A stretch of 32,000 bases of DNA, from assembly GCA_963666265.2 (NCBI GenBank), contig CAXXHW010000001.1, positions 566,088-598,087 on the forward strand, in the 5' to 3' direction. Positions 7,749 through 24,438 of this stretch are shown in pieces. The stretch is from Dehalococcoidia bacterium (GTDB lineage: Bacteria; Chloroflexota; Dehalococcoidia; SHYB01). The notes below the pieces were generated by a model, which saw nothing but the letters and a program-made list of their open reading frames with translations, had not been told where the DNA came from and did not search any database. How positions within the stretch are numbered: position 1 is the stretch's first letter; each line of letters begins with the position of its first letter. Both the position numbers and the translations under genes were made by a program.

Positions 7749-7828
7749 GCCCGCTTTTCCCGTAGGTGCGTGCCATGCTATGCCTCCCGTCCTTTCGCCG
7801 GCGCGGGTTACACCTCCTCCTTCGTCCA

Positions 7829-7873
7829 GGTCCGACTTTGTCCCGATGACGAATCGGGATGCAATCGGAGCTC
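7829..7873 (+). repeat. 45-nt hairpin element (core TCCCGAT-gacga-ATCGGGA), copy A
   Basis: gtccgactttgtcccgatgacgaatcgggatgcaatcggagctca is the reverse complement, with a few indels, of 9154-9202. Confidence 0.8.
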
Positions 7874-7943: not shown

Positions 7944-7975
7944 GGTTTTGAACTTTATTAAAATTGGTGGCCGCT

Positions 7976-8074
7976 ATGCCGGATGTGGACTTCAAATTCA
8001 ATCCAGCGAACATAGTCAACCGAGGAGGGACCATCGCACGGAAAGACACGGCTAGTGCGTACGGGGTGAGGTAA
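7976..8074 (+). CDS. 32-codon upstream ORF, a truncated paralog of the MscS N-terminus
   Basis: ATG at 7976 preceded by GGTGG. MPDVDFKFNPANIVNRGGTIARKDTASAYGVR; the first ~28 codons are homologous at DNA level to mscS codons 1-28 (MPDVDFTFNVAGMVNRGVTVAI...). TAA at 8072-8074 lies 1 nt before the channel GTG at 8076. Below the ORF-track size cutoff. Confidence 0.4.
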   Translation: MPDVDFKFNPANIVNRGGTIARKDTASAYGVR

Positions 8075-9153: not shown

Positions 9154-9202
9154 TGAGCTTCCGATTTGCATCCCGATTCGTCATCGGGACGAAGTCGGGA
9201 CT
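9154..9202 (-). repeat. 45-nt hairpin element, copy B (inverted relative to copy A)
   Basis: tgagcttccgatttgcatcccgattcgtcatcgggacgaagtcgggac is the reverse complement of 7829-7873, with 2-3 small differences. Confidence 0.8.
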
Positions 9203-9243
9203 TGTCGGAAGACGCCTTCTTTTTGGAATAGCCTCGGTTAGGC

Positions 9244-9272: not shown

Positions 9273-9305
9273 AGGTTTTGAACTTTTTTGAAATTGGTGG
9301 CTGCT

Positions 9306-10190
9306 ATGCCGGATGTGGACTTCACATTCAATGTAGCGGGTATGGTCAACCGAGGAGTCACCGTCGCCATTATCCTGGTGGCGACCTGGATCCTCGTGAG
9401 AATTGTGAGACGGGTGATCACAAGGTTGATAACCGCTCAGATTCCGAAGTTGCGAGCGGAATCGCCGGAGGAGCTGGCCTCCCGTTCGCATACCCTGAGC
9501 GCGGCGATCAGTCAGACCGTCGGCACCGTCATTTGGATCATCGCCGGGATGATGGTCCTGAGCGAAGCCGGGATCAACATCGGTCCGCTGGTGGCGGCCC
9601 TTGGACTGGCCTCCCTGGCGTTGGGCTTCGCAGCCCAGGGGATTATCCGTGACTACATTCATGGCATGTACATCCTTCTGGAGGACTGGTATCGGGTGGG
9701 GGAGGTGGCCATCGTGGCGGGGATCGGCGGCCTGGTGGTGGATATCACTCTCCGGAGGACTGTCCTCCGAGACCTCGATGGGGTGTGGCACAACATCCCC
9801 AACAGCAAGATAGAGATGGCCAGCAACGTCACCAGGGACATGGCCCGCATCAATCTGAACATTGAAGTCGCTTACGGGGAGAACCTGGACAACGTGATCC
9901 GGGTCATCAACGAGGTCGGCGTCGAGCTCAAAGCGGATGAGACCCACGGACCAAACCTATTGACTACCCCCAGGGTTGAGGGTGTGGACAAGCTGGGCTC
10001 GTCCGGTATCGAGATCAAGATTCTCGGCGATACCAAGGCCGGTACCCATTGGGGGCTAACTCGCGAGCTAAGGAAACGACTCAAAGACCGGTTCGACGAA
10101 GAGGGGATCGAGATTCCCTGGCCCCACGCAAAGGTTTACTTTGGTGACGAGCTCCGTCACGCCGAGAGTGTCATGGGGGACCGCCGCTAG
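9306..10190 (+). CDS. mscS: small-conductance mechanosensitive channel (MscS family)
   Basis: Track ORF starts at TTG 9288. ATG 9306, with GGTGG 6 nt upstream, is preferred. TM helices (VTVAIILVATWILV, VGTVIWIIAGMMVL, LGLASLALGFAAQG) are followed by the MscS beta-domain block GEVAIVAGIGGLVVDITLRRTVLRDLDGVWHNIPNSKI. Confidence 0.88.
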   Translation: MPDVDFTFNVAGMVNRGVTVAIILVATWILVRIVRRVITRLITAQIPKLRAESPEELASRSHTLSAAISQTVGTVIWIIAGMMVLSEAGINIGPLVAALGLASLALGFAAQGIIRDYIHGMYILLEDWYRVGEVAIVAGIGGLVVDITLRRTVLRDLDGVWHNIPNSKIEMASNVTRDMARINLNIEVAYGENLDNVIRVINEVGVELKADETHGPNLLTTPRVEGVDKLGSSGIEIKILGDTKAGTHWGLTRELRKRLKDRFDEEGIEIPWPHAKVYFGDELRHAESVMGDRR

Positions 10191-10291: not shown

Positions 10292-10512
10292 TCTTCCCCT
10301 TGATAGGGGAGAGTGGCCTTGCACAAGATGTCATTCTGAGTCCTGACGTGTCGGGACGAAGAATCTGGGGTGGGGCAGACTTCACCCCCATCCTAACCTC
10401 CCCCCTTCAAGGGGGAAGGGACTCATCCCCAGACCCTTCGGCTTCGCTCAGGGTGACACAGCATTTCTCACTTTTTGTGCAAAGCCGCGGGAGAGATAGA
10501 GAGGGGGTGTTT
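10292..10512 (+). repeat. MITE-like composite intergenic repeat, copy A
   Basis: Shares with 13220-13428 the blocks gcacaagatgtcattctgag, gaatctgggg and ccccagacccttcggcttcgctcagggtgaca. Near-terminal inverted match ggccttgcacaa / ttgtgcaaagcc. Internal hairpins TCCCCT-tgat-AGGGGA and CCCCC-ttcaa-GGGGG. Sits between convergent mscS and orf122. Confidence 0.75.
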
Positions 10513-10524
10513 TTCAGCACCCTG

Positions 10525-10893
10525 CTACTCCGGGACGATGTCGGCGATTTCGAAGCTCAGGTCGCCTAGCCCCACAACGGCGAACCCGATACCGACCTTG
10601 TGAGGCCCCGGCCCCAGCTTTCGGCCCTTCACCATCATCACGGACTCTCGGTTCATCACAAGTGTGAAGGGGTTCTCCTTACTCACCGACGAGAATGGAG
10701 TCTCCTCTCCTTCCACCATGAAGAATGAGCTTTCCAGGGGTACCTCTTCGCCGTCCACCTTCAAGGGGAGAAGCCGCTGGGCGTAGCCTGATCCCAGCGA
10801 GTTCTTCAAGGAAAGCTTGAACCCATCCTCCGTGTTTTGCAGGCTGCCCTTCACGTAGAGCCGTTTGAGAATAAAGCCGGGAACTTTGATCAT
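10525..10893 (-). CDS. hypothetical protein (122 aa), third gene of the kinase-aldolase operon
   Basis: ATG 19 nt after the aldolase stop. Non-shadow composition (MIKVPGFILKRLYVKGSLQNTEDGFKLSLKNSLGSGYAQRLLPLKVDGEEVPLE...). No family recognised. Confidence 0.6.
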   Translation of the reverse strand: MIKVPGFILKRLYVKGSLQNTEDGFKLSLKNSLGSGYAQRLLPLKVDGEEVPLESSFFMVEGEETPFSSVSKENPFTLVMNRESVMMVKGRKLGPGPHKVGIGFAVVGLGDLSFEIADIVPE

Positions 10894-10912: not shown

Positions 10913-11590
10913 CTAAGAGTTGGGAGCTTCAGTAAGGTGGGTCATCCGGAAAAGATCTTGTTCGATGGCTACAACCTCATCGGGGAGCAGGTTGACTCGG
11001 TCGAGGGCACGCGCCATCAAGTAGATATGGGCGGCCCGTTCCACCATTTCGCAAACGGCCAACGCCTCTCGAAGGTCCTTGCCGACTCCCACCAGGCCGT
11101 GGTTAGCCAGCAGCGCGGCGTTGCGCTCGTCAAGGGCCGCCGCCACATTGTCGGCCAGCTCCTCGGTGCTGGGAAAGGCGTACTCAGCCACCCTGACCTC
11201 GCCACCGACCGATGCCACGATCTCGTCGATGACGGGGGGGAGCTCCAGTCTGGCGACCGCCAGGACGCTGGCATAGACGGAGTGGGTGTGGACGAAGGCC
11301 CCGACGTCCGGTCGGGCGCGATAAGCCGCCACGTGCATCAGGGTCTCAACCGAGGGTAACAGGTCCCCCTCCACCGGCTCTCCCTCGAAATCGATCACCT
11401 GAATGTCGTCGGCCTGCAGCTCGTCGTAGTACTTACCACTGGGTGTGATGGCCAGCAGCTCTTGGCCTTCGCCGAGGCGCATGCTGACATTGCCCGAGCT
11501 CCCGACCACGAGCCCTTTGCGGGCCATGTCCCGGCCCGTTGCCAGCACCGCTTCCTTCTCTTGCTGCCACCTGCTCGTCATGCTGCTCAT
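10913..11590 (-). CDS. class II aldolase/adducin-family protein (fuculose-1-phosphate-aldolase-like)
   Basis: Track ORF 10913..11683 trimmed to ATG 11588-11590 (GGAG upstream), which removes the overlap with the kinase gene. GSSGNVSMRL, ITPSG, metal-binding HTHS and ANHG blocks. Confidence 0.85.
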   Translation of the reverse strand: MSSMTSRWQQEKEAVLATGRDMARKGLVVGSSGNVSMRLGEGQELLAITPSGKYYDELQADDIQVIDFEGEPVEGDLLPSVETLMHVAAYRARPDVGAFVHTHSVYASVLAVARLELPPVIDEIVASVGGEVRVAEYAFPSTEELADNVAAALDERNAALLANHGLVGVGKDLREALAVCEMVERAAHIYLMARALDRVNLLPDEVVAIEQDLFRMTHLTEAPNS

Positions 11591-11609
11591 GATCTCCGTA
11601 TGCCGGACA

Positions 11610-13130
11610 TTATAGCCTATCGCCCAGGGCGTCCAGGCCTTCGTCCATGGCCAGCCAGCGGCTATAGTAGTCCTGGTAGTCAATGGATAGTATCGGGTCT
11701 TGAGGCATAAGCCGGCCTCGTTTCGCCATCGCTCCGGCCGCTTGCCTCAGCCCGGAATAGGCATCGGTACCGGCGGCTGCGCAAATTGCCGCGCCGAGCC
11801 CAGTGACCTCGGGGCTCCTCGCCAGGAGGAGCGGGCAGTCCAGGACGTTGGCCAGGATGCGGGTCAGCGTCCGGCTCTTCGCCATGCCGCCGCCGAAGCT
11901 TACACCGGACGGGGCGACGCCCGTGATTTCCTCGATCTGCGCGAGATTGCTCTTGATGGCGAAGGACAGGTTTTCCAGAGTGGCCCGGAACAGGTCAGCG
12001 TTGCCAATGGGCAGGGTGTCTGATAGCAGGGGGAAGAGGAGCCCGCCCCAGCGTGGCCCAACGTTCGCCATGTTTGCGGTCCGGGGTCCCAGGAACGCCA
12101 GGGCCGCGTTGGAGCCGGGTGGCGCATTCCTGGCCAGCCTATCGATGGCGGCGTAGCGGTCCTCGGAGCCGTCCACCGCCAGGTTCGTAGCAGCCCAGCG
12201 GTAGGCCCCGCCAGCCTCGGTAGCGCTGCTCTCCAACACCCAGCGATCGCCCATGAGGTGCCGGCCGCTCCAGGTCCGCATCGCATCGTCCAGGTAGAGC
12301 CGGTCCGTGACCGCTTGCACCGGGGCGCTCCACCCCGCGACGACCCCCACCTGTCCCGGCTCTGTGACCCCCATGCCCAGCAGACCGCATTGCGTGTCAG
12401 GCCCGCCGGCGACGACCCGAGTTTGACGGGAGAGTCCTGTCGCTGCGGCTGCCTCCGTGCTCACCTGGCCCAGGACCTGCCCTGACTCCGTGAGCGGTGG
12501 CAAGATATCCGTTGGCAGCTTCAGGAGTGACAGCAAATCGGTGGCCCACTCGCCGTCGGCGACATTGAGGAGTCCTATCTCCGCCGCCGAGGAGCGCTCC
12601 ACCGCCGGCACGCCGCATAGCCTGTAGGCGATCCAGGAATCCAGGCTCAGGACATGGCGGACCCGTTCGAGTAGCCCCGGACGATTGTTCTTGTGCCACT
12701 GGAGCTTGGCGGGGGCGAAGAGGAACGAGGGCAAGTGGCCCGTGGTGTTGTACACCTTGTCTTGGTGTTCCTCATCGATGCTCTGTCCCTCCATGAACGC
12801 CCGCAGGTCCGTATTCGGACCTGCATAGAGCTCCCGTCCCTCGCCGTCAAGGAGAACGATTCCCTCCCTCTGGCTGGTAGCGCTGGCCGCGGCTACGTCG
12901 GCTCCCCGGATTCCTGCCTCGCGCATCGACCTGCGTACCAGGCGGCCAAGGACGGTCCAGAGAGTATCGGCGGAAAGCTCCCTGCCCAGGGGCGCAAGGT
13001 CGGCGGGTGCGGTTGGCGCCACCTCCGACGACGCCTGGCCCACGATGTTGCCCCGGGCGTCGGTCACGATGCAGCGTAGACGGCTGCTGCCCAGGTCCAC
13101 CGCCAAAAAGTACGGGCCTGTTCTACTCAA
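11610..13130 (-). CDS. FGGY-family carbohydrate kinase (by eye closest to the LsrK/AI-2-kinase-like branch)
   Basis: Start moved to TTG 13128-13130 (GGAGGA 4 nt upstream), giving LSRTGPYFLAVDLGSS. ATSQREGIVLLDGEGRELYAGPNTDLRA and LDSWIAYRLCG parallel E. coli LsrK CSMREGIVLYNNEG..ACANVDARA and ISDWLAYMLSG. Substrate unknown. Confidence 0.82.
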   Translation of the reverse strand: MSRTGPYFLAVDLGSSRLRCIVTDARGNIVGQASSEVAPTAPADLAPLGRELSADTLWTVLGRLVRRSMREAGIRGADVAAASATSQREGIVLLDGEGRELYAGPNTDLRAFMEGQSIDEEHQDKVYNTTGHLPSFLFAPAKLQWHKNNRPGLLERVRHVLSLDSWIAYRLCGVPAVERSSAAEIGLLNVADGEWATDLLSLLKLPTDILPPLTESGQVLGQVSTEAAAATGLSRQTRVVAGGPDTQCGLLGMGVTEPGQVGVVAGWSAPVQAVTDRLYLDDAMRTWSGRHLMGDRWVLESSATEAGGAYRWAATNLAVDGSEDRYAAIDRLARNAPPGSNAALAFLGPRTANMANVGPRWGGLLFPLLSDTLPIGNADLFRATLENLSFAIKSNLAQIEEITGVAPSGVSFGGGMAKSRTLTRILANVLDCPLLLARSPEVTGLGAAICAAAGTDAYSGLRQAAGAMAKRGRLMPQDPILSIDYQDYYSRWLAMDEGLDALGDRL

Positions 13131-13219
13131 ATATCCTCCCCTCTTGTCGGGGAGGATTAAGGTGGGGGGTGCCCGGCCCACAACTTTTCCTCGAGGCCCT
13201 GGTATTTGCTCTGCTCATG

Positions 13220-13428
13220 CCCCCGTCCTATCCTTCCCCCGGCCCTGCACAAGATGTCATTCTGAGGAGCGCAGCGACGACAGAATCTGGGGGGGCAGAT
13301 TCAACAGAAAGCCCTCCACCTCCCCAGACCCTTCGGCTTCGCTCAGGGTGACCTGTTCATACGCTCAAGGTGACACATGATTTCTCAAAGCCCCGCAAGA
13401 GGGGAAGGGGTTACCCTCTCCCCCGTCC
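13220..13428 (+). repeat. MITE-like composite intergenic repeat, copy B, bounded by 9-bp direct repeats
   Basis: CCCCCGTCC occurs at 13220-13228 and 13420-13428, exactly 200 nt apart. Inverted CCTTCCCC (13232-13239) / GGGGAAGG (13401-13408) lie just inside. Internal blocks are shared with copy A. The last codons and TAA of the 2-HADH-like gene lie inside the right end. Confidence 0.7.
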
Positions 13429-14439
13429 GGCCTTCCATAACGACCGCCTTTTTGGCCACGCTTCGGGATTGACGAGGCGGTTGGGGCGCTTTCCTTCGAG
13501 GACCAGGAGAAGATCATCGGTGATCATCTTGGAATGGCGCTGGACGGTCTCTTTGGTCGCTCCGCCGATGTGCGGTGTCAGCACGACTCGGTCCAGCGTC
13601 AGGAGCTTGCTGCTGGAGGGCAGAGGCTGCCCGTCGAACACGTCCAGGGCCGCGCCGGCGATGCCTTCCCGTTCCAGGGTCTCCACCAGCGCCTGCTCCT
13701 CCACGACTCCCGGAGCAGACGTGTTCACCAGATAAGCGGTTGGCTTCATCATCGCCAGCTGCTGCTGTCCGATCATTCCCAGGGTGTCCGGCAGCGCCGG
13801 AGCGTGGACCAGGACGTAATCGGACTCGGCCAGTAGCCGGTCCAGGTCTTTAAGGGTGACGTCCAGGGCCCCGGCCTCCTCCGTGGTGACATAGGGGTCC
13901 GTGGCGATGACCGCCATCTCCATGGCCTGAAGCCTTCGGGCCACGAGCTTGCCGATAGCGCCGAGGCCGATGATGCCCGCCGTTTTTCCGGCCAGCTCCG
14001 TCCCCTGAAACACGTCGTAGGCCTCCACTGGGTCTGACCAGCGGCCCTCCTTGACGTGATGGTGGGCGTCCGGGATGTGGCGGGCCAGGGCCAGCATTGT
14101 CCCCACCGTGAGCTCGGCGACGGCGTGAGCGTTCCTCCCCGGCGTGTTGACGACCAGTATCCCCCGCTCAGTGGCGGCGTCGACGTCGACGTGGTTGATG
14201 GCGCCCCGGCAGATGCCGATAAACTCCAGACCCGGTACTTGCTCCATCGTCTCCTCGAAGACGAAGTCCGCCTCGATCACGACGCCCTGATAGCCGCCGC
14301 CGTTCAAGAGGTCGGCCAGCTCCTCGGGATCGTACAGCCGGTTGGTCGCAAGCCAGCTTTCGTGGTAGACGCTCATTGCCGCCGAGAGGCGCCGCAGCTG
14401 CTCCGGGGCGAAGGGGGCGAGTATCAGGACATTTTTCAT
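13411..14439 (-). CDS. D-isomer 2-hydroxyacid dehydrogenase-fold protein with non-canonical active site (Arg->Pro, Glu->Gln)
   Basis: 342 aa. ATG overlaps the hpnE stop (ATGA at 14436-14439). GIIGLGAIG NAD loop and LTPHIGGAT His block are present, but LVNTSAPGVVE replaces ..N.SRG..VD and DVFDGQP replaces DVF..EP (by-eye alignment to E. coli SerA). Confidence 0.85.
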   Translation of the reverse strand: MKNVLILAPFAPEQLRRLSAAMSVYHESWLATNRLYDPEELADLLNGGGYQGVVIEADFVFEETMEQVPGLEFIGICRGAINHVDVDAATERGILVVNTPGRNAHAVAELTVGTMLALARHIPDAHHHVKEGRWSDPVEAYDVFQGTELAGKTAGIIGLGAIGKLVARRLQAMEMAVIATDPYVTTEEAGALDVTLKDLDRLLAESDYVLVHAPALPDTLGMIGQQQLAMMKPTAYLVNTSAPGVVEEQALVETLEREGIAGAALDVFDGQPLPSSSKLLTLDRVVLTPHIGGATKETVQRHSKMITDDLLLVLEGKRPNRLVNPEAWPKRRSLWKAGRGRG

Positions 14440-15809
14440 GGGGCCCGCATGGTCTCCCTGGCGGCGAAGATGCCGCTCCGCACCGCGCTCTCCATGGTAG
14501 AGGGCCAGCCCGTATCAGTCCAGGCGCCTGCCAGGAACAGGTTGGGCACGGGCGTGCGGGAGGGCAGGCGGTTCGCCGCCGAGCCGGGGCTTGCCGTGAA
14601 GGTCGCGTAGCGCTCCTTGACGATGGTGTAATGGAGCACGGTGGCCTCCCGGCTGGCCGGTACGTGGCGGTGCAGCTCGTCGATCATCAGGGTGTAGAGC
14701 GCCTCCTGCGGCATATCGATGTACTTGTGGGCGGCGCTCAGGGAGATACAGAGGTACTGGCCCGAGCCGCCGTCCATCCCGTGGATCTCGCTCTTGTTGA
14801 AGAGCCACTGAAGCTCGCTGTCCAGGTAGGCGGCGAAGCTGCTGTCCGTTACTTTCCTGTCGAGCCAGAGATAGACGTTTACGATGGGGGACATGGCCAT
14901 GTTGGCCGCCTTCCGAAAGAACTCGTGCTCTTGAAGGGCAGGCGGAAGTAGGTCCAGGAGCTTGTTAGGGGGGACGGCCAGGATGTAGGCGTCTGCCTGG
15001 TGGACAGCCCCGCCATGGGTCGTCACGCTATCGATTCCTTCCACGGTACCGTCGAGACGAGCGGCGCTTTGGCCCAGAATAAGGCGGCCGTCTCGGGCCT
15101 CGATGTACCGGCTAGCCTCGTCGACGAGGAGTGTCGAGAGCCCCACCTTCGCGTAGCCCATGTCGGCGGCGTGGGGGTCCGCGAGAAACCCCACCTGGAA
15201 GATCATGATCGCCTGGGCGGCGCTGACGGCCCGGGCGTCGTCGTTGAGCGTCGGCAGGATGACCAGGTTCCAGAAGTTATCGATAGACCTTTCCGATTGC
15301 CGATGGGCCATGAGCCAATCGTAAAAGGTAACGTTGTCCAGACCGCGCCGCTTGCCTTCTGAGATGCGGCGCATAGAGGCGGCGGCATACCCGATGCGGA
15401 GCTTGTCACTCCAAGAAAGATGGCGATAGGTCAGAAGCGATGGCAACAGGTGCAGGGGGGATGGGAGGCGGGAGCCGGAGAGCACCGAGGCGTGTCCCTC
15501 AGCGCCCACTACCTTGACGGACAGCCGCTCTTGCAGGTAGGTCTTGTCGAGGACGCCCAGCCGCTTGAGCAGGTCGATGTAATAGGTGCAGCACTTCATG
15601 AAGACGTGCTGTCCGTTGTCGACCTCAGACCCGTTCTTCTTGTCCGTAAAGGAATAGGTGCGACCGCCCAGGTAGGGCCGTCTTTCCAGCAGGTCAACCT
15701 GGTAACCGCCGTCCGCCAGCTCGCTGGCCGCCGTAATGCCGGCCAGCCCGCCCCCTACGACGAGGACTTTGCGTTGGGCAGAAGACTTTTCAACGTCGTT
15801 GTCGTCCAT
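14436..15809 (-). CDS. hpnE: hydroxysqualene dehydroxylase (FAD-dependent amine-oxidase/phytoene-desaturase fold)
   Basis: 457 aa. KVLVVGGGLAGITAASELADGGYQVDLLERRPYLGGR dinucleotide motif. Positioned directly after hpnC-hpnD, as in known hopanoid clusters. Confidence 0.85.
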   Translation of the reverse strand: MDDNDVEKSSAQRKVLVVGGGLAGITAASELADGGYQVDLLERRPYLGGRTYSFTDKKNGSEVDNGQHVFMKCCTYYIDLLKRLGVLDKTYLQERLSVKVVGAEGHASVLSGSRLPSPLHLLPSLLTYRHLSWSDKLRIGYAAASMRRISEGKRRGLDNVTFYDWLMAHRQSERSIDNFWNLVILPTLNDDARAVSAAQAIMIFQVGFLADPHAADMGYAKVGLSTLLVDEASRYIEARDGRLILGQSAARLDGTVEGIDSVTTHGGAVHQADAYILAVPPNKLLDLLPPALQEHEFFRKAANMAMSPIVNVYLWLDRKVTDSSFAAYLDSELQWLFNKSEIHGMDGGSGQYLCISLSAAHKYIDMPQEALYTLMIDELHRHVPASREATVLHYTIVKERYATFTASPGSAANRLPSRTPVPNLFLAGAWTDTGWPSTMESAVRSGIFAARETMRAP

Positions 15810-16660
15810 ATCTTTCCAGCGAGCCAGATCTTGTGGGGGGTCGAGAGACGCACCCTGTGGTGATACACATTGTAGCCGTTGGCCTCAATGCGCTTCAGCA
15901 GCTCGCTGTACAGGCCTCGAAGGATAGCGGGACAAGAGCGAGAGCGAAAGGGCACCAGGGGCAGCATGCGGCTCCCCTCCTTGAAGTAGTGCCTGGCCCG
16001 CTCTGCCTGAAAGGCCATCATCTGCACGAACTGGTCGTTGACCACGCCTTGTAACAGGTCGCTCTCCGTATAGCCAAACCGTTCCAGGTCCTCCATGGGC
16101 AGGTAGATGCGGTCCCGATCCGAGTCCTCCTTGATATCCCGAAGGATGTTGACCAGCTGCATCGCGATTCCCAAGTCTATGGCGGACTGCTTGGCCTGGG
16201 AGTCGGAGTAACCGAAAATCTCGACGCAGACCAGGCCCACGACCGATGCTACGCGGTAACAGTAGGTATACAGGTCCTCGAAGGTTGCGTAGCGGGAGAC
16301 GGTGAGGTCCATTTCGACGCCGCTGATGATGTCATCGAAGTATTCGTGAGGGATCCGGTAGCGCTGCACCACGTCGTACAGGGCGACGAAGACCGGGCCT
16401 TCGGGCTCTCCTTTTAGGCACGCATGCAGCTGATCACGGTACTGCGCCAGAAGCCTGACCTTCTGTTCCAGCTCGATATCGTCGTCGGAGTAGTCGTCGC
16501 ATCCCCTGCAGAAGGCATAGGCAACGTAGATAGCCCGGCGTTGCTGCGCCGGTAGGGAGAGGAACGCGAAGTAGAAGTTACGGGCCCGGTCGCAGGTTAA
16601 CGCCTGGCAGAAGCGGTATGATTCCTCCAAGGACGTTTCCGTGGCGGCTCCGCTAGCCAT
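15755..16660 (-). CDS. hpnD: presqualene diphosphate synthase (squalene/phytoene synthase fold)
   Basis: Track ORF 15755..16789 trimmed to ATG 16658-16660, which overlaps the hpnC stop (ATGGCTAG). SYRFCQALT..ARNFYFAFLSLP..RRAIYVAYAFCRGCDDYSDD and DIKEDSDRDRIYLP Asp-rich motifs. Confidence 0.85.
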   Translation of the reverse strand: MASGAATETSLEESYRFCQALTCDRARNFYFAFLSLPAQQRRAIYVAYAFCRGCDDYSDDDIELEQKVRLLAQYRDQLHACLKGEPEGPVFVALYDVVQRYRIPHEYFDDIISGVEMDLTVSRYATFEDLYTYCYRVASVVGLVCVEIFGYSDSQAKQSAIDLGIAMQLVNILRDIKEDSDRDRIYLPMEDLERFGYTESDLLQGVVNDQFVQMMAFQAERARHYFKEGSRMLPLVPFRSRSCPAILRGLYSELLKRIEANGYNVYHHRVRLSTPHKIWLAGKIWTTTTLKSLLPNAKSSS

Positions 16661-17549
16661 GACTTCGACCGCCCGTTGCCCGTTGGAGAGCCAGCTTCGC
16701 CAGCGCGCCGAGGGCCAGCCGGGTCTTCTTCGCCTTGGACACCACGGGGCGCTTGGAGAGAACGTCGTACCCCTGTTGCTCAATCGCATCGAGGACGGCC
16801 AGTCCTCCCATGGTGAACAGCTTCAGGTCCAAGCGCAGCTCCCCATGGACCGTGTCGACCAGCTTCACGCCTTCGTGGAACAGGGACCGGGCCCGGTCCA
16901 CCTCGACTGCCATCAGGTCTCGAAACTGGGGATTGAACTCGCCGCGGGCCAGCTCCTCCTCGGTATAGCCGAAACGCTCCATGTCTTCCAGGGGTAGGTA
17001 GATGCGGCCCATGGCGTAGTCCCGCCGCACGTCCTGCCAGAAGTTCGCCAGTTGCAGCGCCGTGCACGTGGCGTCGGAAAGCCGGTGGCGCTCTGGGTCG
17101 GCGTAACCGAAGACATAGAGGACCATGCGCCCCACCGGGTTGGCGGAGTGCTCGCAGTAATGCAGGACATCGGCATACGTGGGGTAACGTTGGCTCCGCT
17201 GGTCCATCCGGTTGGCCTCTATCAGCTTGAGGAAGGGCTCGGGCGGTATGTCGTGCCTGCGGATGGTCTGCTGGAGGGCCGTCATGATCTGCTCGTGGGG
17301 AGAGCCGTCATAGCACAGCCGGAGCTCCTTTTCCCAGAGGTCCAGTAGCTCCAGGCGCTCCCCCGCCGCCTCGTCGCCCAGGTCGTCCGTATGGCGGCAG
17401 AAGGCGTAGACGCTGAAGGTGGATGGCCGCAGGGCCTTGGGGAGAAGCCAGGAGCCGACGGTGAAGTTTTCATAATGACCCTTGGCCAGCCGCTCGCAAT
17501 AGGCAAAGGCCTCCTCCACCGTTGAAGCCTTAGACTGGGTGTCTACCAT
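16653..17549 (-). CDS. hpnC: hydroxysqualene synthase (squalene/phytoene synthase fold)
   Basis: 298 aa. AFAYCERLAKGHYENFTVGSWLLP...VYAFCRHTDDLGDE and DVRRDYAMGRIYLP. The HYENF motif is typical of HpnC. Confidence 0.85.
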   Translation of the reverse strand: MVDTQSKASTVEEAFAYCERLAKGHYENFTVGSWLLPKALRPSTFSVYAFCRHTDDLGDEAAGERLELLDLWEKELRLCYDGSPHEQIMTALQQTIRRHDIPPEPFLKLIEANRMDQRSQRYPTYADVLHYCEHSANPVGRMVLYVFGYADPERHRLSDATCTALQLANFWQDVRRDYAMGRIYLPLEDMERFGYTEEELARGEFNPQFRDLMAVEVDRARSLFHEGVKLVDTVHGELRLDLKLFTMGGLAVLDAIEQQGYDVLSKRPVVSKAKKTRLALGALAKLALQRATGGRSHG

Positions 17550-17602: not shown

Positions 17603-18811
17603 TCAAGAGCCCCATCTCTTCTCGACATAATCCTCGACCATCTTTATAAAATCCTCGGCGATGCCGGACCCTTCCAGGAAGGTCGTGCGTTCCCCGTCAA
17701 CGAAAACCGGCGCTCTTGGCGACTCCCCTGATCCCGGCAACGATATGCCGATATTTGCGGTCCTGGACTCCCCAGGGCCGTTGACCACGCATCCCATGAC
17801 CGCCACCTTGAGCTCTTCCGCTCCCGCATAGCGCGCCTTCCACTGTGGCATCTTCGAGTCCAGGTGCGCCTGTATGTCCCGTGCAAGCTCCCGGAACAGG
17901 ACGGAAGTGGTGCGGCCGCACCCTGGGCAGGCCGTCACGGCAGGCCGGAAGGAGCGCAGCTGCAAAGCCTGCAAGATCTCCTGGCATAGCCGCACCTCGC
18001 GGGCCCGGTCTCCTCCGGGCTCGGGGGTAAGGCTGGACCTGATTGTGTCTCCTATGCCGTCGTAGAGGAGTGTGGAAAGGGCCGCGGTGGTGGCGACGAT
18101 CCCTTTGGTGCCCATGCCGGCCTCGGTTAGGCCGATGTGGAGAGGGAGGTCACAGCGTCGGGAGATCTCTCGGTAGGCCTCTACCATCTGGGGGAGGCGG
18201 GACACCTTGCAGGAGATAATGATCTTATTCTCCGGCAGTCCGAGCGAGACGGCGGCCTCTGCGCTGGCGATGGCGCTCTCCACCAGCGCTTCCCGCTCGA
18301 CCTCATCGCCGGTGAGGGGCGACTGTCGCTGGTTATTGGCGTCCATCTTCTGGCCGAGGAGTTCCTGGTCCAGACTGCCGGCGTTAACCCCGATTCTGAC
18401 GGGCTTATCCAGCTCCCGGGCGATCTCGATGAAGGTGCGAAAGTTGTCATCATGCCGAGGGCCTCGGCCCACATTACCGGGGTTTATGCGGTACTTTTCC
18501 AGTGTCTTTGCGCAGTCCGGGTGGTCTCGGAGGAGGCGGTGCCCGATAAAATGGAAGTCGCCGATGAGGGGAACCCCACAGCCTACGTCGTCAAGCCGTT
18601 TCCGAATCTCCGGCACCGCCGCGGCAGCCGCATCGTTGTTGACGGTCACCCGGACAAGCTCGCTTCCGGCTTCGGCCAGGAGCTTCACCTGGGCGACGGT
18701 CGCCCGAATGTCCGAGGTCTCGGTGTCCGTCATCGACTGAACGACGATGGGGTTTTCACCACCGATGGGCACACTGCCTACAAAGGTTACTTTTGTTGGG
18801 CGCCTTTTCAC
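17603..18811 (-). CDS. ispG: 4-hydroxy-3-methylbut-2-en-1-yl diphosphate synthase (MEP pathway)
   Basis: 402 aa. GTG start 3 nt after the shc stop. [32 protein letters not shown] and GCVVNGPGE Fe-S ligand blocks. Confidence 0.92.
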
Positions 18812-18814
18812 CGG

Positions 18815-20809
18815 CTACCGCCCTCCGGAGTCGCCTTCGGCTGCCTGCCGATACTGGCCCAGGGCCATCAGCGGCCAATAATCACGGTACATGTGATAGT
18901 TGATCATGAAGTCGTTGGGAAATCCTGTTCCAGTGAACTCGGGTTCATCCCAGGAGCCGTGCCCTTGCTGTTTCATCAGGAGATATTCTACGCCCCTCCG
19001 GGCGGCGTGGCCGGCGGCGTCCCCAGAGGCTATTAGGGCCAGGAGCGCCCAGCTGGTCTGGGAAGGAGTACTGGGTCCCTGGCCGCCCCGGGAAGGGTCC
19101 TTATAGGACTCGCAGCCCTCGCCCCAGCCGCCATCAGGCTGCTGGCGCTTCTCCAGCCAGCTTACCGACTTGCGAATATAGGGTTGGCTCATGTCCTCCC
19201 CAGCCCATTTGAGGGCCGGCACGACCGCTCCCAGGCCGTAGAGATAGTTGACGCCCCAACGTCCCCACCAGGAACCGTCCGGTAGCTGGGTTTCCTTGAG
19301 GTAGGCCACGCCCCGCTCGATCGCCTGAGACGTGCCCCTGAGCCCCAGCCGTCCAAGCATCTCCACCATGTGGCCGGAGACATCCTCCGTCGGGGGGTCC
19401 AGTACCTCACCGAAGTCGCAGAATGGGATGTGGGTGACCCACTCCTTGGCGTTGTCTACGTCAAATGAGCCCCAGCCTCCGTTCTTGCTCTGCATGCTCA
19501 TCGTCCAATCGACACCACGTTGGATGGCGCGCCGCATCCTGGGGTCGTCGTTCCACTGCATCTTATGCAAGGCGATCAGGATTATCGCCGCGTCGTCGAT
19601 GTCCGGGTAGTTATCGTTTTTGAACTCGAAGGGCCAGCCCCCCGGGAGGGTGTTAGGGTTCTTGACCTGCCAGTCTCCTCCGCGGTCCAGAATTTGCTGC
19701 TTGATAAGCCATTCGGCGCCGTTCACCAGGGCAGGATGGCTCGGCGGTAGGCCGGAGTCTTGCAGGGCGAGCATGGCGAGGCACGTGTCCCAGCCGGGAG
19801 ATACGCACGGCTCCGTATGGAGAGTCTCGTCTGTTTCTCTCATGAAGGCATCGAATCCCTGGATCCCCGCTTTCATCACAGGATGGTCGATGGAGTAGCC
19901 GAGGGTGTGGAGCGCCATAAGGGAGTAGACCCAAGGGGGCTGGATGCCTCCCCAGGTGCCGTCCTCTTCCTGGCGGGCGATGATCCACTGCTCTGCTTTG
20001 CGAAGAGCGGTCCGGCGAATGGGGTTCCACGGGGATGCTTCCAGTAGCCGCAGCGATTTATCCACTCCACGGAAGAGCCCGTTCCAACTGAGCAGATCCC
20101 CCTTTTTCCCGTAGGAAGAAGAGGTCCGGTCGCGGCCTGATGGGAACAGCTCGTCCAGCTGCGCCCACTCGGGTACCTCGCAGACGGGCTTGAGAGTGAG
20201 CAGGATGGTGCAGGCGACGATGGTGCCCCGCGCCCAGGAGGCGAATTCATAGATGTTGAAGGGGAACCAGCTGGGGAGAAGGACCAGCTCCGCGGGCAAA
20301 ACGGGTGTGTCACGCCAGTCCCATTGCCCGAACATGGCCAGCCACATCTTCGTAAAGATTCGGACGTTGGGCAGGCCGCCCTGGGCGAGGATGAACCGTC
20401 TCGCCTTTGTCCTGGCAGGGTCGTTGGGGTCCACGCCCGCCAACTTCATGGCGAAGTAGGCTTCCGTGGTGATGCTCAGGTCTCCGGGGGCCCCGTACCA
20501 GATAGGCCAGCCTCCGTCCGGAAGCTGTTTGGATTTCAAATAGCTGACAATCTTCCCCCAGCGTTTGGGGTCCGGTATTCCCAGGAAATGGGTCAGCAGG
20601 ACGAACTCAGCATGGATGGAGCAGTTCGCCTCAAGCTCGCCCCACCAGTATCCCTCTGGGTACTGGAGTCCCAGGAGGTACTCTCTGGACCGTTCGATAG
20701 CCCGGTCCAGCTCAGTCGAGACCCCGCGGTGCGTCGCCGCACCGTTAAAGGGCGGCGCTGCGCTGGCGGGCTGGGCCTGGGTGAGCTCACGCAGCTGACC
20801 GTCACTCAT
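18815..20809 (-). CDS. shc: squalene-hopene cyclase
   Basis: Track ORF trimmed to ATG 20807-20809 (GGAGGAG upstream), which overlaps the hpnG stop (ATGAGTGA). DxDD-type protonation motif YPDIDDAA. Multiple QW repeats (QLPDGSWWGRWG, QQPDGGWGE, QGHGSWDE, QEEDGTWGG). Confidence 0.93.
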   Translation of the reverse strand: MSDGQLRELTQAQPASAAPPFNGAATHRGVSTELDRAIERSREYLLGLQYPEGYWWGELEANCSIHAEFVLLTHFLGIPDPKRWGKIVSYLKSKQLPDGGWPIWYGAPGDLSITTEAYFAMKLAGVDPNDPARTKARRFILAQGGLPNVRIFTKMWLAMFGQWDWRDTPVLPAELVLLPSWFPFNIYEFASWARGTIVACTILLTLKPVCEVPEWAQLDELFPSGRDRTSSSYGKKGDLLSWNGLFRGVDKSLRLLEASPWNPIRRTALRKAEQWIIARQEEDGTWGGIQPPWVYSLMALHTLGYSIDHPVMKAGIQGFDAFMRETDETLHTEPCVSPGWDTCLAMLALQDSGLPPSHPALVNGAEWLIKQQILDRGGDWQVKNPNTLPGGWPFEFKNDNYPDIDDAAIILIALHKMQWNDDPRMRRAIQRGVDWTMSMQSKNGGWGSFDVDNAKEWVTHIPFCDFGEVLDPPTEDVSGHMVEMLGRLGLRGTSQAIERGVAYLKETQLPDGSWWGRWGVNYLYGLGAVVPALKWAGEDMSQPYIRKSVSWLEKRQQPDGGWGEGCESYKDPSRGGQGPSTPSQTSWALLALIASGDAAGHAARRGVEYLLMKQQGHGSWDEPEFTGTGFPNDFMINYHMYRDYWPLMALGQYRQAAEGDSGGR

Positions 20810-21650
20810 GGTGCTCCTCCCCGGTGTTGCCACAAATCTTAGAAAAGAAAAGGGAGGCAAAGGCCCCCAAATTGTTGCTGGCGCGGCGGGCTCGCCGTGC
20901 CAGACTCGGTACGCTGAGCAAATCCTTGGGATGCGTCAAGAAATACAGGGCAGCGCTCAATGGCCGGACCTCGCCCATCTCATCTTCGAAACGCCCGTAG
21001 TCTGGCAGCGGGTCATCTGCCCTATCGGAGACCGCCCTCACGGCGAGAAAAGGCACCCCATGCTTCTTTGCAACCTCTCCTATCCAGTAGCTCTCCATCT
21101 CTACGGCCTTGACAGGATAGCGTGTCCCCAACCATTTTTTCATCACCGGCCCCATGACGTTCGGCACGGTCATGAGGTCCCCGGTATGCGTAGGTATGCC
21201 TTCATCCTTCAGTACCAGTGTCGCCGCCTCCAGTAACGCGCTGTCAGAAGTTACGTCGTTTCCATCCAGCCGTTCACCCTGAGCTTGTCGAAAGGCGTCC
21301 TCTGATTCGGCAAACTCGCCACGAGCGGGGCTTTTTATCTTCGCGATGGCCTCAGCGTCCAGGGGGTAAACCCTCTCGCCCAGGACCAGATCTCCTCCTT
21401 CTACTTCCTGGGCCACGCCCCCGGCTAAGCCTATGGAAATGAGGGCCTCCGGACGGCATGTCTCCATGACAGCGAGAGCGCCTTCACGGGCCCGTTCTTT
21501 TCCTATCCCCGATTGGACCAGGGCGACCGGCAATCGGCCGACGGTGCCACGGCGGATGATACAGCCCCGGACGCGTGACTGCTGCTGGACCTGGACCAGC
21601 GGCTCCAGGCGGCTCAGTTCCCTGCCAAGGGCTGCGATGAAGACCAGCAC
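20802..21650 (-). CDS. hpnG: hopanoid-associated nucleoside phosphorylase-family protein (adenosylhopane nucleosidase type)
   Basis: 282 aa, GTG start immediately following the orf132 stop. PNP_UDP_1-like blocks: SGIGKERA, LISIGLAGG, VEMESYWIGEVAKKHGVPFLAVRAVSDRADD. The hpnG assignment rests on fold plus position between hpnH and shc. Confidence 0.75.
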   Translation of the reverse strand: MLVFIAALGRELSRLEPLVQVQQQSRVRGCIIRRGTVGRLPVALVQSGIGKERAREGALAVMETCRPEALISIGLAGGVAQEVEGGDLVLGERVYPLDAEAIAKIKSPARGEFAESEDAFRQAQGERLDGNDVTSDSALLEAATLVLKDEGIPTHTGDLMTVPNVMGPVMKKWLGTRYPVKAVEMESYWIGEVAKKHGVPFLAVRAVSDRADDPLPDYGRFEDEMGEVRPLSAALYFLTHPKDLLSVPSLARRARRASNNLGAFASLFFSKICGNTGEEHHE

Positions 21651-22049
21651 TTAGTCCACGCTCCCTGGCCCGGTGTCACTCGTTGAGTCTGCTCCATGAC
21701 CTGCCGCCTCGCGGGCAAGGCCGTCCTTCTCCCGTTGCTTGCGATCTACCCAGGCCTGCCAGGACTTGCCTGCGGCGGTGTCCCTGCCGGTGAACTTGAT
21801 AGTCGCTATGTCAGCATAGACGAGGGTGTACGGTCCATTCCCTTCTTCATCTATGACCTGAATGAAGGGCTCGGGCGCCTCGCGGTTTCTGTTGAAGATG
21901 TAGCCCACGATCTCGGAGCCGTCCGTCTTGACGATGGTGGTGTTCCCCCGATAGTCGAACGCCAGGTCAATGATGCGCTCCAGAGTCACCTCTCCGCCAA
22001 GCTCCGGCGTCCAGCCCTGTAGACTTTTCTCCTCGGTCATTACAACCAC
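21651..22049 (-). CDS. hypothetical protein (132 aa) embedded between hpnH and hpnG
   Basis: GTG 22049 (GAGGG 6 nt upstream) or ATG 22040. Soluble, no TM segment. EVTLERIIDLAFDYRGNTTIVKTDGSEIVGYIFNRN...YADIATIKFTGRDTAAGKSWQAWV plus an acidic/Ser-Thr tail. No family recognised. Confidence 0.6.
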   Translation of the reverse strand: MVVMTEEKSLQGWTPELGGEVTLERIIDLAFDYRGNTTIVKTDGSEIVGYIFNRNREAPEPFIQVIDEEGNGPYTLVYADIATIKFTGRDTAAGKSWQAWVDRKQREKDGLAREAAGHGADSTSDTGPGSVD

Positions 22050-22109: not shown

Positions 22110-23132
22110 TCAAAGTTTCCCGGTAACCGTTGTTAAGGCCGTGTTCCAAATCCCTCTCACGGACCCAAAGGTCTCGTTGACGGCCGTCGCCTCATAGCCG
22201 CAGTGGACCAGGCAGTCGGCACATTTTTCGTTGCCGCTGCTCCTGCCGTAGTTTTCCCATGCGGTCTCCTCAATCAGCTCTTTAAAAGTCTCCGCATACC
22301 CCTCTTGAAGCAGATAACACGGTCGCTGCCATCCAAACATGTTGTACAAAGGGTTGCCCCAGGGGGTGCACTCGTAGTCGTGCTTGCCCATCAGGAACTG
22401 GAGAAAGAGGGGTGATTGGTTAAATTTCCATTCCTTTTTCTTGTTGGATAGAATATCGCTAAAAAGGTTGTTGGTCCGCTCCTTCCGCAGGAAATGTTCC
22501 TTGTTTGGCGCCTTGGCGTAGCTGTATCCGGGAGAGATCATCATCCCCTCGATGTCGAGGTCCATCATCTCATCAAAGAATTCCCGGACTTGCAAAGGGG
22601 CGGCATTGTCGAAAAGAGTGGTGTTGGTGGTCACCCGAAAGCCGCGCGCGACGGCCTCTTTGATTCCCTCGACTGCTTGATCGTAGACTCCATCCCGGCA
22701 CACGGACTCGTCATGCGCCTCTCTCAGACCGTCCATGTGGACGCTGAAGCTCAGGTATTTTGAAGGGGTGAAGGCCCCTTTTTGCAGAGTATCCTTCAGC
22801 AGGATGGCGTTAGTGCACAGATAGATATATTTGCCGCGCTTCTCCAGGCCCTCCACCAACTCATGAATGTGTGGGTACATGAGGGGTTCCCCACCGGCGA
22901 TACTGACCATTGGGGCTCCGCATTCGTCGACTGCCTCCAGCGCCTTTTCCAGGGGCATGTTTTTCTTGATAATCTGGGATGGATACTGGATCTTGCCGCA
23001 GCCGGAGCAGGCTAGATTACAACGGAAAAGCGGCTCCAACATGAGGACCAGTGGATACTTCTGTCTCCTGGCCAATTTCTGCTTCAAGACGTAACTCGTC
23101 ACTGCCCATGCCTGGGATACCGGCACTCCCAT
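22110..23132 (-). CDS. hpnH: adenosylhopane synthase (radical SAM)
   Basis: 340 aa. YPLVLMLEPLFRCNLACSGCGKI (CxxxCxxC). Overall collinearity with HpnH-type radical SAM proteins, including the C-terminal Cys-rich CADCLVHCGYE. Confidence 0.9.
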   Translation of the reverse strand: MGVPVSQAWAVTSYVLKQKLARRQKYPLVLMLEPLFRCNLACSGCGKIQYPSQIIKKNMPLEKALEAVDECGAPMVSIAGGEPLMYPHIHELVEGLEKRGKYIYLCTNAILLKDTLQKGAFTPSKYLSFSVHMDGLREAHDESVCRDGVYDQAVEGIKEAVARGFRVTTNTTLFDNAAPLQVREFFDEMMDLDIEGMMISPGYSYAKAPNKEHFLRKERTNNLFSDILSNKKKEWKFNQSPLFLQFLMGKHDYECTPWGNPLYNMFGWQRPCYLLQEGYAETFKELIEETAWENYGRSSGNEKCADCLVHCGYEATAVNETFGSVRGIWNTALTTVTGKL

Positions 23133-24360: not shown

Positions 24361-24438
24361 CAAACTCTGCTCTGGCCACTCCCTTGGGGGGAGCCGGCGT
24401 GGAGATTGCGGCTCCGTACCTCGGCTAACGATGCTGGG

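Follow-up and report, generated by a model that had tools for sequence, protein, structure and literature searches.

A dehydrogenase-fold protein minus two of three catalytic residues heads a conserved, uncharacterised enzyme module in Chloroflexota hopanoid operons

The D-2-hydroxyacid dehydrogenases (2HADHs) carry an Arg-Glu-His catalytic triad that is conserved in nearly all members of the family. The reference classification of the family lists only three exceptions, in which Glu is replaced by Gln (NAD-dependent formate dehydrogenase, FDH), His by Lys (SerA type IIIK) or His by Trp (X4), and it describes no clade that lacks the Arg (PMC6303947). Here we investigate a gene of this family, and the genes around it, in a stretch of 32,000 nucleotides (nt) from a Dehalococcoidia bacterium of the Chloroflexota (GenBank assembly GCA_963666265.2, contig CAXXHW010000001.1, positions 566,088 to 598,087; the whole stretch is called the window). 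The closest known relatives of the dehydrogenase encoded there are SerA/PGDH, glyoxylate/hydroxypyruvate reductase (GRHPR) and McyI (1wwk, 1ygy, 5aov, 9jnr), which resemble it at 33–37% identity in the two-domain fold, the GxGxxG and Asp of the NAD site, and the catalytic His. Unlike them, the window dehydrogenase has neither the Arg nor the Glu, and it has Cys-Arg78 and Arg102-Asn103. FDH is alike in another respect, as its triad Glu is replaced by Gln, like Gln271 of the window protein, and its substrate is not a 2-hydroxy acid (PMC6303947). However, FDH keeps the Arg, and on the FDH model, whose cut-off is 329 bits, the window dehydrogenase scores only 139.

The dehydrogenase gene is the first of a module of four, and this module also has described counterparts. 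In the L-fucose pathway (FucK, FucA, FucO) and the dihydroxyacetone phosphate (DHAP) shunt (DrdK-DrdI-DrdA), a kinase, which is of the FGGY family in the fucose pathway, is combined with a metal aldolase. These systems cleave a deoxy-ketose-1-phosphate to DHAP and an aldehyde and, as in the module, a nucleosidase is found upstream and a dehydrogenase is associated. The module differs in having no isomerase (FucI, DrdI, MtnA), with a 2HADH-fold protein in that place, in a kinase that is LsrK-like and not FucK or MtnK, and in an aldolase without Tyr113. It is also located inside a lipid-biosynthesis operon, together with a small partner protein that resembles the beta subunit of the C-glycoside deglycosidases (CGDs). 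The CGD systems (DgpA; DgpC/DgpB or CarB/CarC) oxidise a sugar hydroxyl and then break a C-C bond with a metal enzyme, which is the logic that we propose below for the module. In these systems an oxidoreductase is followed by a metal-dependent C-C lyase for C-linked sugars, the beta subunit of which forms part of the substrate cavity (PMC8563793). The fold of this subunit is common to the small protein of the module, whose similarity to the Pfam CGDB family is under the Pfam cut-off; the module differs from the CGD systems in having no TIM-barrel alpha subunit, an oxidoreductase of another family, and a kinase. The closest multidomain relatives are fusions of FGGY, 2HADH, SCP2 and aldolase domains (MEW6179088.1 from Chloroflexota, HJN75793.1 from Myxococcota, and Bellilinea KatS3mg045_0765), which contain the same three enzyme families but keep the Arg-Glu-His triad and carry SCP2 where the module has the CGD-beta-like protein. 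Lastly, HpnA (TIGR03466), which is widespread across hopanoid-producing phyla, is like the window dehydrogenase a nicotinamide-dependent oxidoreductase of hopanoid operons with no assigned reaction, but it has the fold of a short-chain dehydrogenase/reductase (SDR).

We propose, tentatively and at somewhat less than an even chance, that the window dehydrogenase is the putative NAD-linked redox component of a four-gene module that phosphorylates, oxidises and cleaves the ribose-derived side chain of hopanoids. The features of the module are as follows.

13411-14439, minus strand: D-2-hydroxyacid-dehydrogenase-fold protein without the full triad, 342 amino acids (aa), which heads the module
14436-14439, minus strand: four nucleotides, ATGA, shared by the hpnE stop and the dehydrogenase start (translational coupling), from direct reading of the sequence
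13182-13410, minus strand: spacer of 229 nt between dehydrogenase and kinase, with one copy of an intergenic repeat (13241-13352)
11610-13181, minus strand: FGGY-family kinase, LsrK-like (Pfam FGGY_N and FGGY_C); the true start is probably some codons 3' of 13181
10913-11683, minus strand: class II aldolase-family protein, FucA/DrdA-like (Pfam Aldolase_II, 2e-54); probable start near 11590
10525-10893, minus strand: 122-aa all-beta protein with the CGD beta-subunit fold (DUF6379 / Pfam HMG-CoA_red_N; PF25653, 1e-18)

The open reading frame (ORF) at 13411-14439 encodes a genuine dehydrogenase-fold protein minus two of the three catalytic residues. Its ATG is the earliest possible start downstream of an in-frame stop and, at 14439-14437, overlaps the hpnE TGA at 14438-14436; hpnE ends in CGG GCC CCA TGA and the dehydrogenase begins ATG AAA AAT. 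An earlier note on this DNA had described this overlap, which is plain on direct reading, and had taken the dehydrogenase for the last cistron of the operon. The latter is incorrect, as three genes on the same strand continue 3' after the 229-nt spacer. The fold given in that note is borne out by Pfam (2-Hacid_dh_C, PF02826, 4e-58; 2-Hacid_dh, PF00389, 2e-21) and by an AlphaFold2 model built from 34 homologues (mean pLDDT 94), for which the best folds in a Foldseek search of the PDB are McyI, GRHPR and PGDH (TM 0.77–0.83). The GLGAIG loop and TPHIGGAT His block that it named are both present and are invariant in 121 sequences. Among the NCBIfam equivalog models none of the 23 matches of the protein (PGDH/SerA, GhrA/GhrB, PdxB, FDH, D-LDH/VanH) reaches its cut-off, and the top model is PGDH, TIGR01327, with 262 bits against a cut-off of 454.

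The active site was assigned from HMMER alignments of the dehydrogenase to PDB 1wwk and 1ygy, in which NTSAPGVV pairs with NTSRGPVV and DVFDGQP pairs with DVFEEEP. These place the residues as follows.

13714-13716, minus strand: Ala242, in place of the catalytic Arg that polarises the carboxylate (HMMER alignment)
13627-13629, minus strand: Gln271, in place of the Glu that forms the Glu-His dyad (HMMER alignment)
13570-13572, minus strand: His290, the catalytic acid/base, which is kept; it aligns with the His of 1wwk and 1ygy and is invariant in 121 sequences
13897-13968, minus strand: GLGAIG loop (residues 158-163) to Asp181 at the end of beta-B, invariant
14134-14208, minus strand: Cys77-Arg78 and Arg102-Asn103, in loops of the substrate-binding domain, invariant in the triad-less clade

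It had been suggested from the sequence by eye that the catalytic Arg is replaced by Pro and the Glu by Gln. The loss of the Arg stands, though the register was one residue off and the replacement is Ala242, not Pro243; Gln271 is found at the Glu position in the alignments to both structures. Profile and pairwise alignment, the check that the earlier note had put forward, does not restore Arg or Glu at the catalytic positions. Both residues are also missing in all 120 of the best database matches (52% identity or more). Over the 121 sequences the Arg position is A, G, D, S, N or T, with an entropy of 1.97 bits (69th percentile), and the Glu position is H, Q, W, Y or A, with an entropy of 1.43 bits (53rd percentile), being mostly His or Trp rather than Gln across the clade. 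The two lost triad positions drift freely and resemble unconstrained sites, while His290, the NAD site (G158, G160, G163 and D181), Arg78 and Arg102-Asn103 are invariant, and for this reason we favour a catalytic role. The loss of Arg and Glu fits a neutral polyol or sugar substrate better than a 2-oxo acid. Arg78 and Arg102-Asn103 are putative binders of an anion, possibly phosphate, and a phosphorylated substrate is further supported by PGDH, a phospho-substrate enzyme, being the nearest NCBIfam model. The Asp at the end of beta-B, here Asp181, is the marker of NAD(H) preference in the 2HADH family (PMC6303947). It would favour the oxidative direction, which NAD-linked enzymes may be expected to take more often.

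The triad-less loci group as a single clade in a neighbour-joining tree built from 151 sequences, and the sister of this clade is an Actinomycetota clade that keeps Arg-Glu-His. A larger group, marked by Arg78 and Arg102, contains both; Cys77-Arg78 and Arg102-Asn103 are present in the triad-keeping sister clades and in the fusion proteins as well, and are absent from ordinary PGDH/GRHPR relatives. The triad-less clade, which breaks the near-universal Arg-Glu-His rule, is small, with about 10–13 representatives at 50% clustering among 1.84 billion proteins. Among the matches listed, all of its source-named members are Chloroflexota (Dehalococcoidia, SAR202), and outside this phylum the nearest relatives have the triad intact and do not adjoin hpn genes. 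Genome and metagenome scans with the subfamily alignment returned, among the matches listed, mostly distant triad-keeping relatives, the metagenome scan adding nothing to the triad-less tally. Intermediate active sites, Arg-His-His, Ser-Glu-His, Gly-Glu-His and Lys-Glu-His, are found elsewhere in the Cys-Arg/Arg-Asn group (P0267, P0271, P0385, P0321 and locus L092), so that this branch of the family has an unusually plastic triad.

The order of the module is dehydrogenase, LsrK-like FGGY kinase, FucA/DrdA-like class II aldolase and CGD-beta-like small protein. The best PDB match of the kinase is LsrK, the autoinducer-2 (AI-2) kinase (5ya0, 1e-61), with glycerol kinase at 7e-33. The aldolase matches FucA best (4c24, 2e-40), with DrdA third (6btd, 2e-39), and in the alignment to FucA it keeps Glu73 and the three metal-binding His in the motifs SVE, VHTH and ANHG. 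The FucA proton donor Tyr113 is replaced by Asp-Glu or Glu-Glu in all aldolases partnered with 2HADHs of the Cys-Arg/Arg-Asn type. The small protein matches Pfam CGDB at an E-value of 0.0033, and its profile matches the DUF6379 chains of the PDB at 2.5e-5. Its AlphaFold2 model (pLDDT 89.7) has CGD beta subunits as all of its top 17 Foldseek hits in the PDB (E 1e-7 to 2e-5, TM 0.62–0.72), with a clear gap afterwards. The family numbers about 200 proteins, which are stand-alone only and bear Chloroflexota names only. Neither an aldose-ketose isomerase (FucI, RhaA, MtnA, DrdI) nor a gene for the TIM-barrel, sugar isomerase-like CGD alpha subunit was found in the window or the annotated related loci.

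Do these proteins belong to one pathway? An exhaustive search of representative proteins found fusions of about 1260–1490 aa that combine FGGY, 2-Hacid_dh, one or two copies of SCP2, and Aldolase_II, as well as shorter forms with FGGY and 2HADH (about 888 aa) or 2HADH and aldolase (560–576 aa). There are at least 90 fusion clusters (for example P0266, P0301, P0315, P0369, P0304, P0282 and P0321), and the named sources are Chloroflexota (Bellilinea, Anaerolineaceae), Myxococcota, Clostridiales and Actinomycetota, the last having the kinase-2HADH form. Over their full length the fusion domains are 37–42% (dehydrogenase), 34–38% (kinase) and 30–38% (aldolase) identical to the window proteins, and they keep Cys-Arg, Arg-Asn and the full Arg-Glu-His triad. 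This large family of kinase-dehydrogenase-SCP2-aldolase megaproteins shows, on the Rosetta-stone principle, that the three enzymes act in one pathway. The SCP2 domain is a lipid carrier, and that of UbiJ has the proposed role of offering isoprenoid intermediates to a soluble enzyme complex (PMC9499169). The presence of SCP2 in the fusions suggests a lipid-borne substrate.

The position of the module in related genomes was compared over 17 triad-less loci with enough upstream sequence, which were chosen for long contigs and several of which are from one sample; L009 was too short to judge and is outside this count. At 48–72% identity, 14 of the 17 (the window, L001-L005, L007, L008, L086, L087, L088, L090, L091 and L172) have the module directly after hopanoid or squalene genes, immediately 3' of hpnE, SQS or shc-DUF116. 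The linkage to hopanoid genes seen in the window is thus present in orthologous loci elsewhere, a comparison for which the earlier note had asked. At least five operon layouts are represented, with or without ispG, hpnE, HpnA, HpnN (MMPL), YjbQ, DUF116, dxs and idi2. In every triad-less locus annotated the four module genes are contiguous. In L003-L005, L086, L088-L091 and L172 the dehydrogenase stop and the kinase start are either 0–25 nt apart or overlapping, and a 4-nt overlap with the upstream squalene-synthesis gene or a gap of no more than 16 nt is found in L001-L005, L086, L087, L088 and L091. Recurrence of the arrangement in 14 loci at this range of identity makes it a feature far beyond chance. 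In the triad-keeping sister clades, the persistent neighbours are an aldolase and an FGGY kinase, without hopanoid genes, as in loci from Actinomycetota, Bacteroidota and an Asgard archaeon. The clustering of neighbours in the high-GC Actinomycetota gave many spurious antisense ORFs, and only the kinase and aldolase adjacency was retained.

The 229-nt spacer between dehydrogenase and kinase sets the window apart from most relatives, because a repeat element has been inserted there. This intergenic repeat (families D4 and D8) has two copies of about 110–140 nt, which show 100% identity over a 32-nt core, TCCCCAGACCCTTCGGCTTCGCTCAGGGTGAC. The copy at 13241-13352 is inside the spacer, and the second, at 10315-10457, is just 3' of the small-protein gene. 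The spacer has no promoter-like or terminator-like site on the minus strand, no Rfam match, and an RNA fold z of -0.18; a riboswitch or other RNA element, a promoter and a terminator were each considered and rejected on these grounds.

How might the four proteins work together? The input would be the C5 ribose-derived side chain made by HpnH and HpnG, as ribosylhopane or as its reduced form, bacteriohopanetetrol (BHT). Adenosylhopane is a 5'-substituted 5'-deoxyadenosine and, minus its adenine, is a 5-substituted ribose, the lipid analogue of 5-deoxyribose, on which the DHAP shunt acts. The kinase would phosphorylate the terminal C35-OH of BHT, or of a ribulosyl form. The dehydrogenase, with NAD+, would then oxidise the neighbouring C34 CHOH to a ketone, with His290 as the base and with Arg78 and Arg102 holding the phosphate. 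The resulting ketose-1-phosphate-like chain would be split by the aldolase between C33 and C32, while the CGD-beta-like beta-sandwich protein might help to hold the hydrophobic part, and the products would be DHAP and a C32 hopanoid aldehyde. Alternatively, the dehydrogenase may reduce the aldehyde product, like FucO, or may be a redox isomerase. The substrate, step order, redox direction and products are what we infer, and the data give no order for the steps.

The pathway reading is drawn from the four genes being conserved, contiguous and often coupled, and that of a bulky or lipid substrate from SCP2 in the fusions and the CGD-beta-like partner. The best aldolase matches (FucA, DrdA and a haloarchaeal Ru1P aldolase) act on D-erythro ketose-1-phosphates, a configuration to be expected of a D-ribose-derived chain. 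Several observations weigh against side-chain processing. Three triad-less loci (L006, L010, L089), and probably L009 as a fourth, do not adjoin hopanoid genes, and in the tree these exceptions are nested among hopanoid-linked members. The 14 of 17 are not independent events, the loci being phylogenetically related and some from the same sample. Kinases, dehydrogenases and aldolases of these families usually act on soluble substrates, and we know of no native pathway to C32 hopanoids. Without Tyr113, the aldolase could be an epimerase, a dehydratase or a decarboxylase. A clade-specific polar residue that would compensate for the lost Arg and Glu was looked for and none was found, so the dehydrogenase might be a weak enzyme or non-catalytic. 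Additionally, the triad is kept in the fusions and in the Actinomycetota sister clade, in lineages not known for hopanoids (Anaerolineae, Clostridiales), from which it follows that the ancestral substrate differs.

If correct in full, the proposal would mean that Chloroflexota, including the marine SAR202, trim their hopanoid side chains, BHT or ribosylhopane being phosphorylated, oxidised and cleaved to DHAP and a C32 hopanoid; we regard this stronger claim as unlikely, though worth stating. Such trimming would be the enzymatic counterpart of the periodate cleavage of BHT used by chemists, and C32 hopanols and hopanoic acids could then be primary biosynthetic products as well as products of diagenesis. 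Hopanoids are major bacterial membrane lipids and are among the most abundant molecular fossils, the interpretation of which depends on the side chains that are made. What is observed is a conserved, uncharacterised enzyme module within Chloroflexota hopanoid operons; if it edits the C35 side chain, it adds a new way of tailoring hopanoids, and those with short chains (C32) may then have a biological source. To our knowledge, SAR202, an abundant deep-ocean group, has not been treated as a hopanoid source. In the searchable literature we found no description of the gene trio, the triad-less clade, the fusions, or hopanoid operons with a kinase and an aldolase.

The alternative that survives best, which we also think unlikely, is that the module does not act on a lipid at all and is co-expressed with isoprenoid and radical-SAM genes for the salvage of a soluble 5-substituted pentose. 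The likeliest such pentose would be 5-deoxyribose from 5'-deoxyadenosine, the radical-SAM by-product, or else ribose. The dehydrogenase, alone or together with the SDR found after the module in some loci, would carry out a redox isomerisation, to be followed by FGGY phosphorylation at C1 and by aldol cleavage to DHAP and acetaldehyde or glycolaldehyde. In a variant, an AraD-like 4-epimerisation would yield 1-deoxy-D-xylulose-5-phosphate (DXP) and feed the methylerythritol phosphate (MEP) pathway. DrdA, the third-best PDB match of the aldolase, is a 5-deoxyribulose-1-phosphate aldolase, and its known pathway has a nucleosidase, a kinase, an isomerase and an aldolase of class II. The operons contain PNP-family and RihC-like nucleosidases, and LsrK, to which the kinase comes closest, has a 1-deoxy-pentose derivative as its substrate. 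The contexts of the three unlinked loci, cofC/cofD (L006), a divergent dxs (L010) and purine genes (L089), are also in keeping with salvage; F420 synthesis uses the radical-SAM enzymes CofG and CofH. The genes dxs and ispG are found in the hopanoid operons themselves. By hand-worked stereochemistry, 5-deoxy-D-ribose, if converted to 1-deoxy-L-ribulose-5-phosphate and 4-epimerised, would yield DXP, and the acidic residue at the FucA Tyr113 position is reminiscent of the catalytic Asp of AraD. However, the metal-ligand acid of the aldolase is Glu as in FucA, and not the Asp of AraD. HpnH builds the 5'-deoxyadenosyl radical into adenosylhopane and is not known to release it. Housekeeping salvage has no obvious reason to be coupled to squalene genes in 14 of 17 loci, and the SCP2 fusions and CGD-beta-like partner point to a bulky hydrophobic substrate. 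A different soluble route, in which the LsrK-like kinase and a reductase would turn phospho-DPD (AI-2) into DXP, was rejected on hand-worked stereochemistry, as (S)-DPD gives the L-series at C4.

Is the dehydrogenase instead the missing NAD(P)H-dependent reductase that converts the open-chain aldehyde of ribosylhopane to BHT, as the earlier note proposed? It was right that no gene is assigned to this step: according to a 2025 paper (PMC12583986) the enzyme that makes BHT from ribosylhopane 'has not yet been established', and in a figure of a 2026 review the step is called non-enzymatic (PMC13459092). Such a role agrees with the close association with hpnH, hpnG, shc and hpnCDE, present in 14 of 17 loci, and with the loss of Arg and Glu where His and the NAD site are kept, given that an aldehyde should need less polarisation than a 2-oxo acid. 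The hopanoid linkage and the residue loss on which the proposal was based therefore hold, but nothing points specifically to BHT reduction, and a single reductive step leaves the co-conserved, and elsewhere fused, kinase and aldolase and the CGD-beta-like protein without explanation. Asp181 predicts NAD over NADP, and the cell-free reduction of ribosylhopane reportedly used NADPH. An equally good or better candidate is HpnA, the SDR that neighbours hpnG in many of these operons, and module members are also found away from hopanoid genes (L006, L010, L089). The triad-less clade is seen only in Chloroflexota and so would not be the general BHT reductase of classical producers; we know of no such dehydrogenase gene in the hpn clusters of R. 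palustris, B. cenocepacia, M. extorquens, S. coelicolor and Z. mobilis. The reductase assignment is thus improbable in our judgement, and it is more likely that the module reworks a sugar-derived hopanoid side chain. The data make the ribosylhopane-to-BHT step testable and do not solve it.

Slightly more doubtful again is the possibility that catalysis has been lost and that the dehydrogenase serves the kinase-aldolase pair as an NAD(H)-binding scaffold or redox sensor, in the manner of CtBP. Two of three triad residues are gone, their positions drift as described above, and no compensating clade-specific polar residue was found; likewise, no active 2HADH subfamily without the Arg is listed by Matelska et al. 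(PMC6303947). Yet the invariance of His290, Arg78, Arg102-Asn103 and other substrate-side residues in 121 sequences is unexpected for a dead active site, and fused relatives with the same architecture keep the full triad, so the ancestral role was catalytic.

The least probable reading is an ordinary catabolic cassette for a sugar or sugar acid (for example tetronate-like, with kinase, dehydrogenase and an OtnC-like decarboxylase/aldolase) whose hopanoid synteny is lineage-specific and without functional meaning. It draws on the intact-triad sister clades of Actinomycetota, Bacteroidota and the Asgard archaeon, which have FGGY and aldolase genes beside them without hopanoid genes, on a weak match of the aldolase to the OtnC model (2e-35) and on one of the SDR after the module to D-erythronate dehydrogenase, but the linkage persists with start/stop overlaps through extensive operon rearrangement and down to 48% identity, no typical catabolic transporter or regulator is seen within the Chloroflexota operons, the loss of the Arg argues against an acid substrate, and the association with hopanoid genes came about jointly with the CGD-beta-like partner and the loss of the triad.

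Upstream of the module, the window contains the following genes of hopanoid and isoprenoid synthesis.

14436-15809, minus strand: hpnE, squalene synthesis (NCBIfam TIGR03467, above cut-off)
15755-16789, minus strand: hpnD, squalene synthesis (NCBIfam TIGR03465, above cut-off)
16653-17549, minus strand: hpnC, squalene synthesis (NCBIfam TIGR03464, above cut-off)
17603-18811, minus strand: ispG (NCBIfam/Pfam)
18815-20860, minus strand: shc (NCBIfam equivalog cut-off passed)
20802-21650, minus strand: PNP/HpnG-like gene, below cut-off (HpnG 91 bits, MTA/SAH nucleosidase 98 bits)
21651-22049, minus strand: conserved ORF of no assigned function, between hpnH and the HpnG-like gene
22110-23132, minus strand: hpnH (NCBIfam equivalog cut-off passed)
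23329-24363, minus strand: polyprenyl synthase (NCBIfam/Pfam)

Both HpnH and HpnG had been reported for this cluster in the earlier note. HpnH is secure, having passed its equivalog cut-off, and for HpnG a PNP-family gene is present but scores below the HpnG cut-off. The ORF at 21651-22049 has homologues of 111–132 aa in L001-L005 and L086, with no Pfam or PDB match, and is an unannotated component of Chloroflexota hopanoid operons.

The hopanoid operons of the related loci vary in content. In L086 (9123-10010), L088 (9100-9984) and L090 (9059-9937) one SQS_PSY gene, without hpnE, replaces hpnC-hpnD-hpnE, which suggests a one-enzyme squalene synthase in those lineages. HpnA (TIGR03466, 436–444 bits against a cut-off of 368) is between the HpnG-like gene and shc in L004 (2627-3613) and L172 (6573-7571), is found also in L005, L086 and L087, and is absent from the window and from L001-L003. 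The SAR202-type operons (L088, 13603-15443; L090, 14871-16812; L091, 13602-15466) continue past the small protein with a GalE-like SDR and a RihC-like nucleoside hydrolase, and have YjbQ between shc and the squalene synthase gene. The RihC-like hydrolase, present besides the HpnG-like PNP, is a second nucleosidase in these operons.

Among the three loci not adjoining hopanoid genes, L006 (8246-15641, on a Dehalococcoidia chromosome) has the module right after cofD-cofC, followed by PNPOx-like and F420_oxidored genes, and this neighbourhood may reflect either a link to F420 or coincidence. In L010 (8037-14487) the module and a GalE-like SDR are divergent from an adjoining dxs, and no hopanoid gene is nearer than 10 kb. 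A transposase comes next, so the module may have moved here from another place. In L089 the module follows purine genes.

Downstream of the module, a mechanosensitive-channel gene is present in L002. In the window, a segment of about 1.3 kb upstream of the ORF at 9288-10190 is surrounded by a 94-nt direct repeat (7944-8037 and 9274-9367; 86% identity) and flanked by a 47-nt inverted repeat (7818-7864 / 9166-9212). These repeats may represent a local duplication of a gene start.

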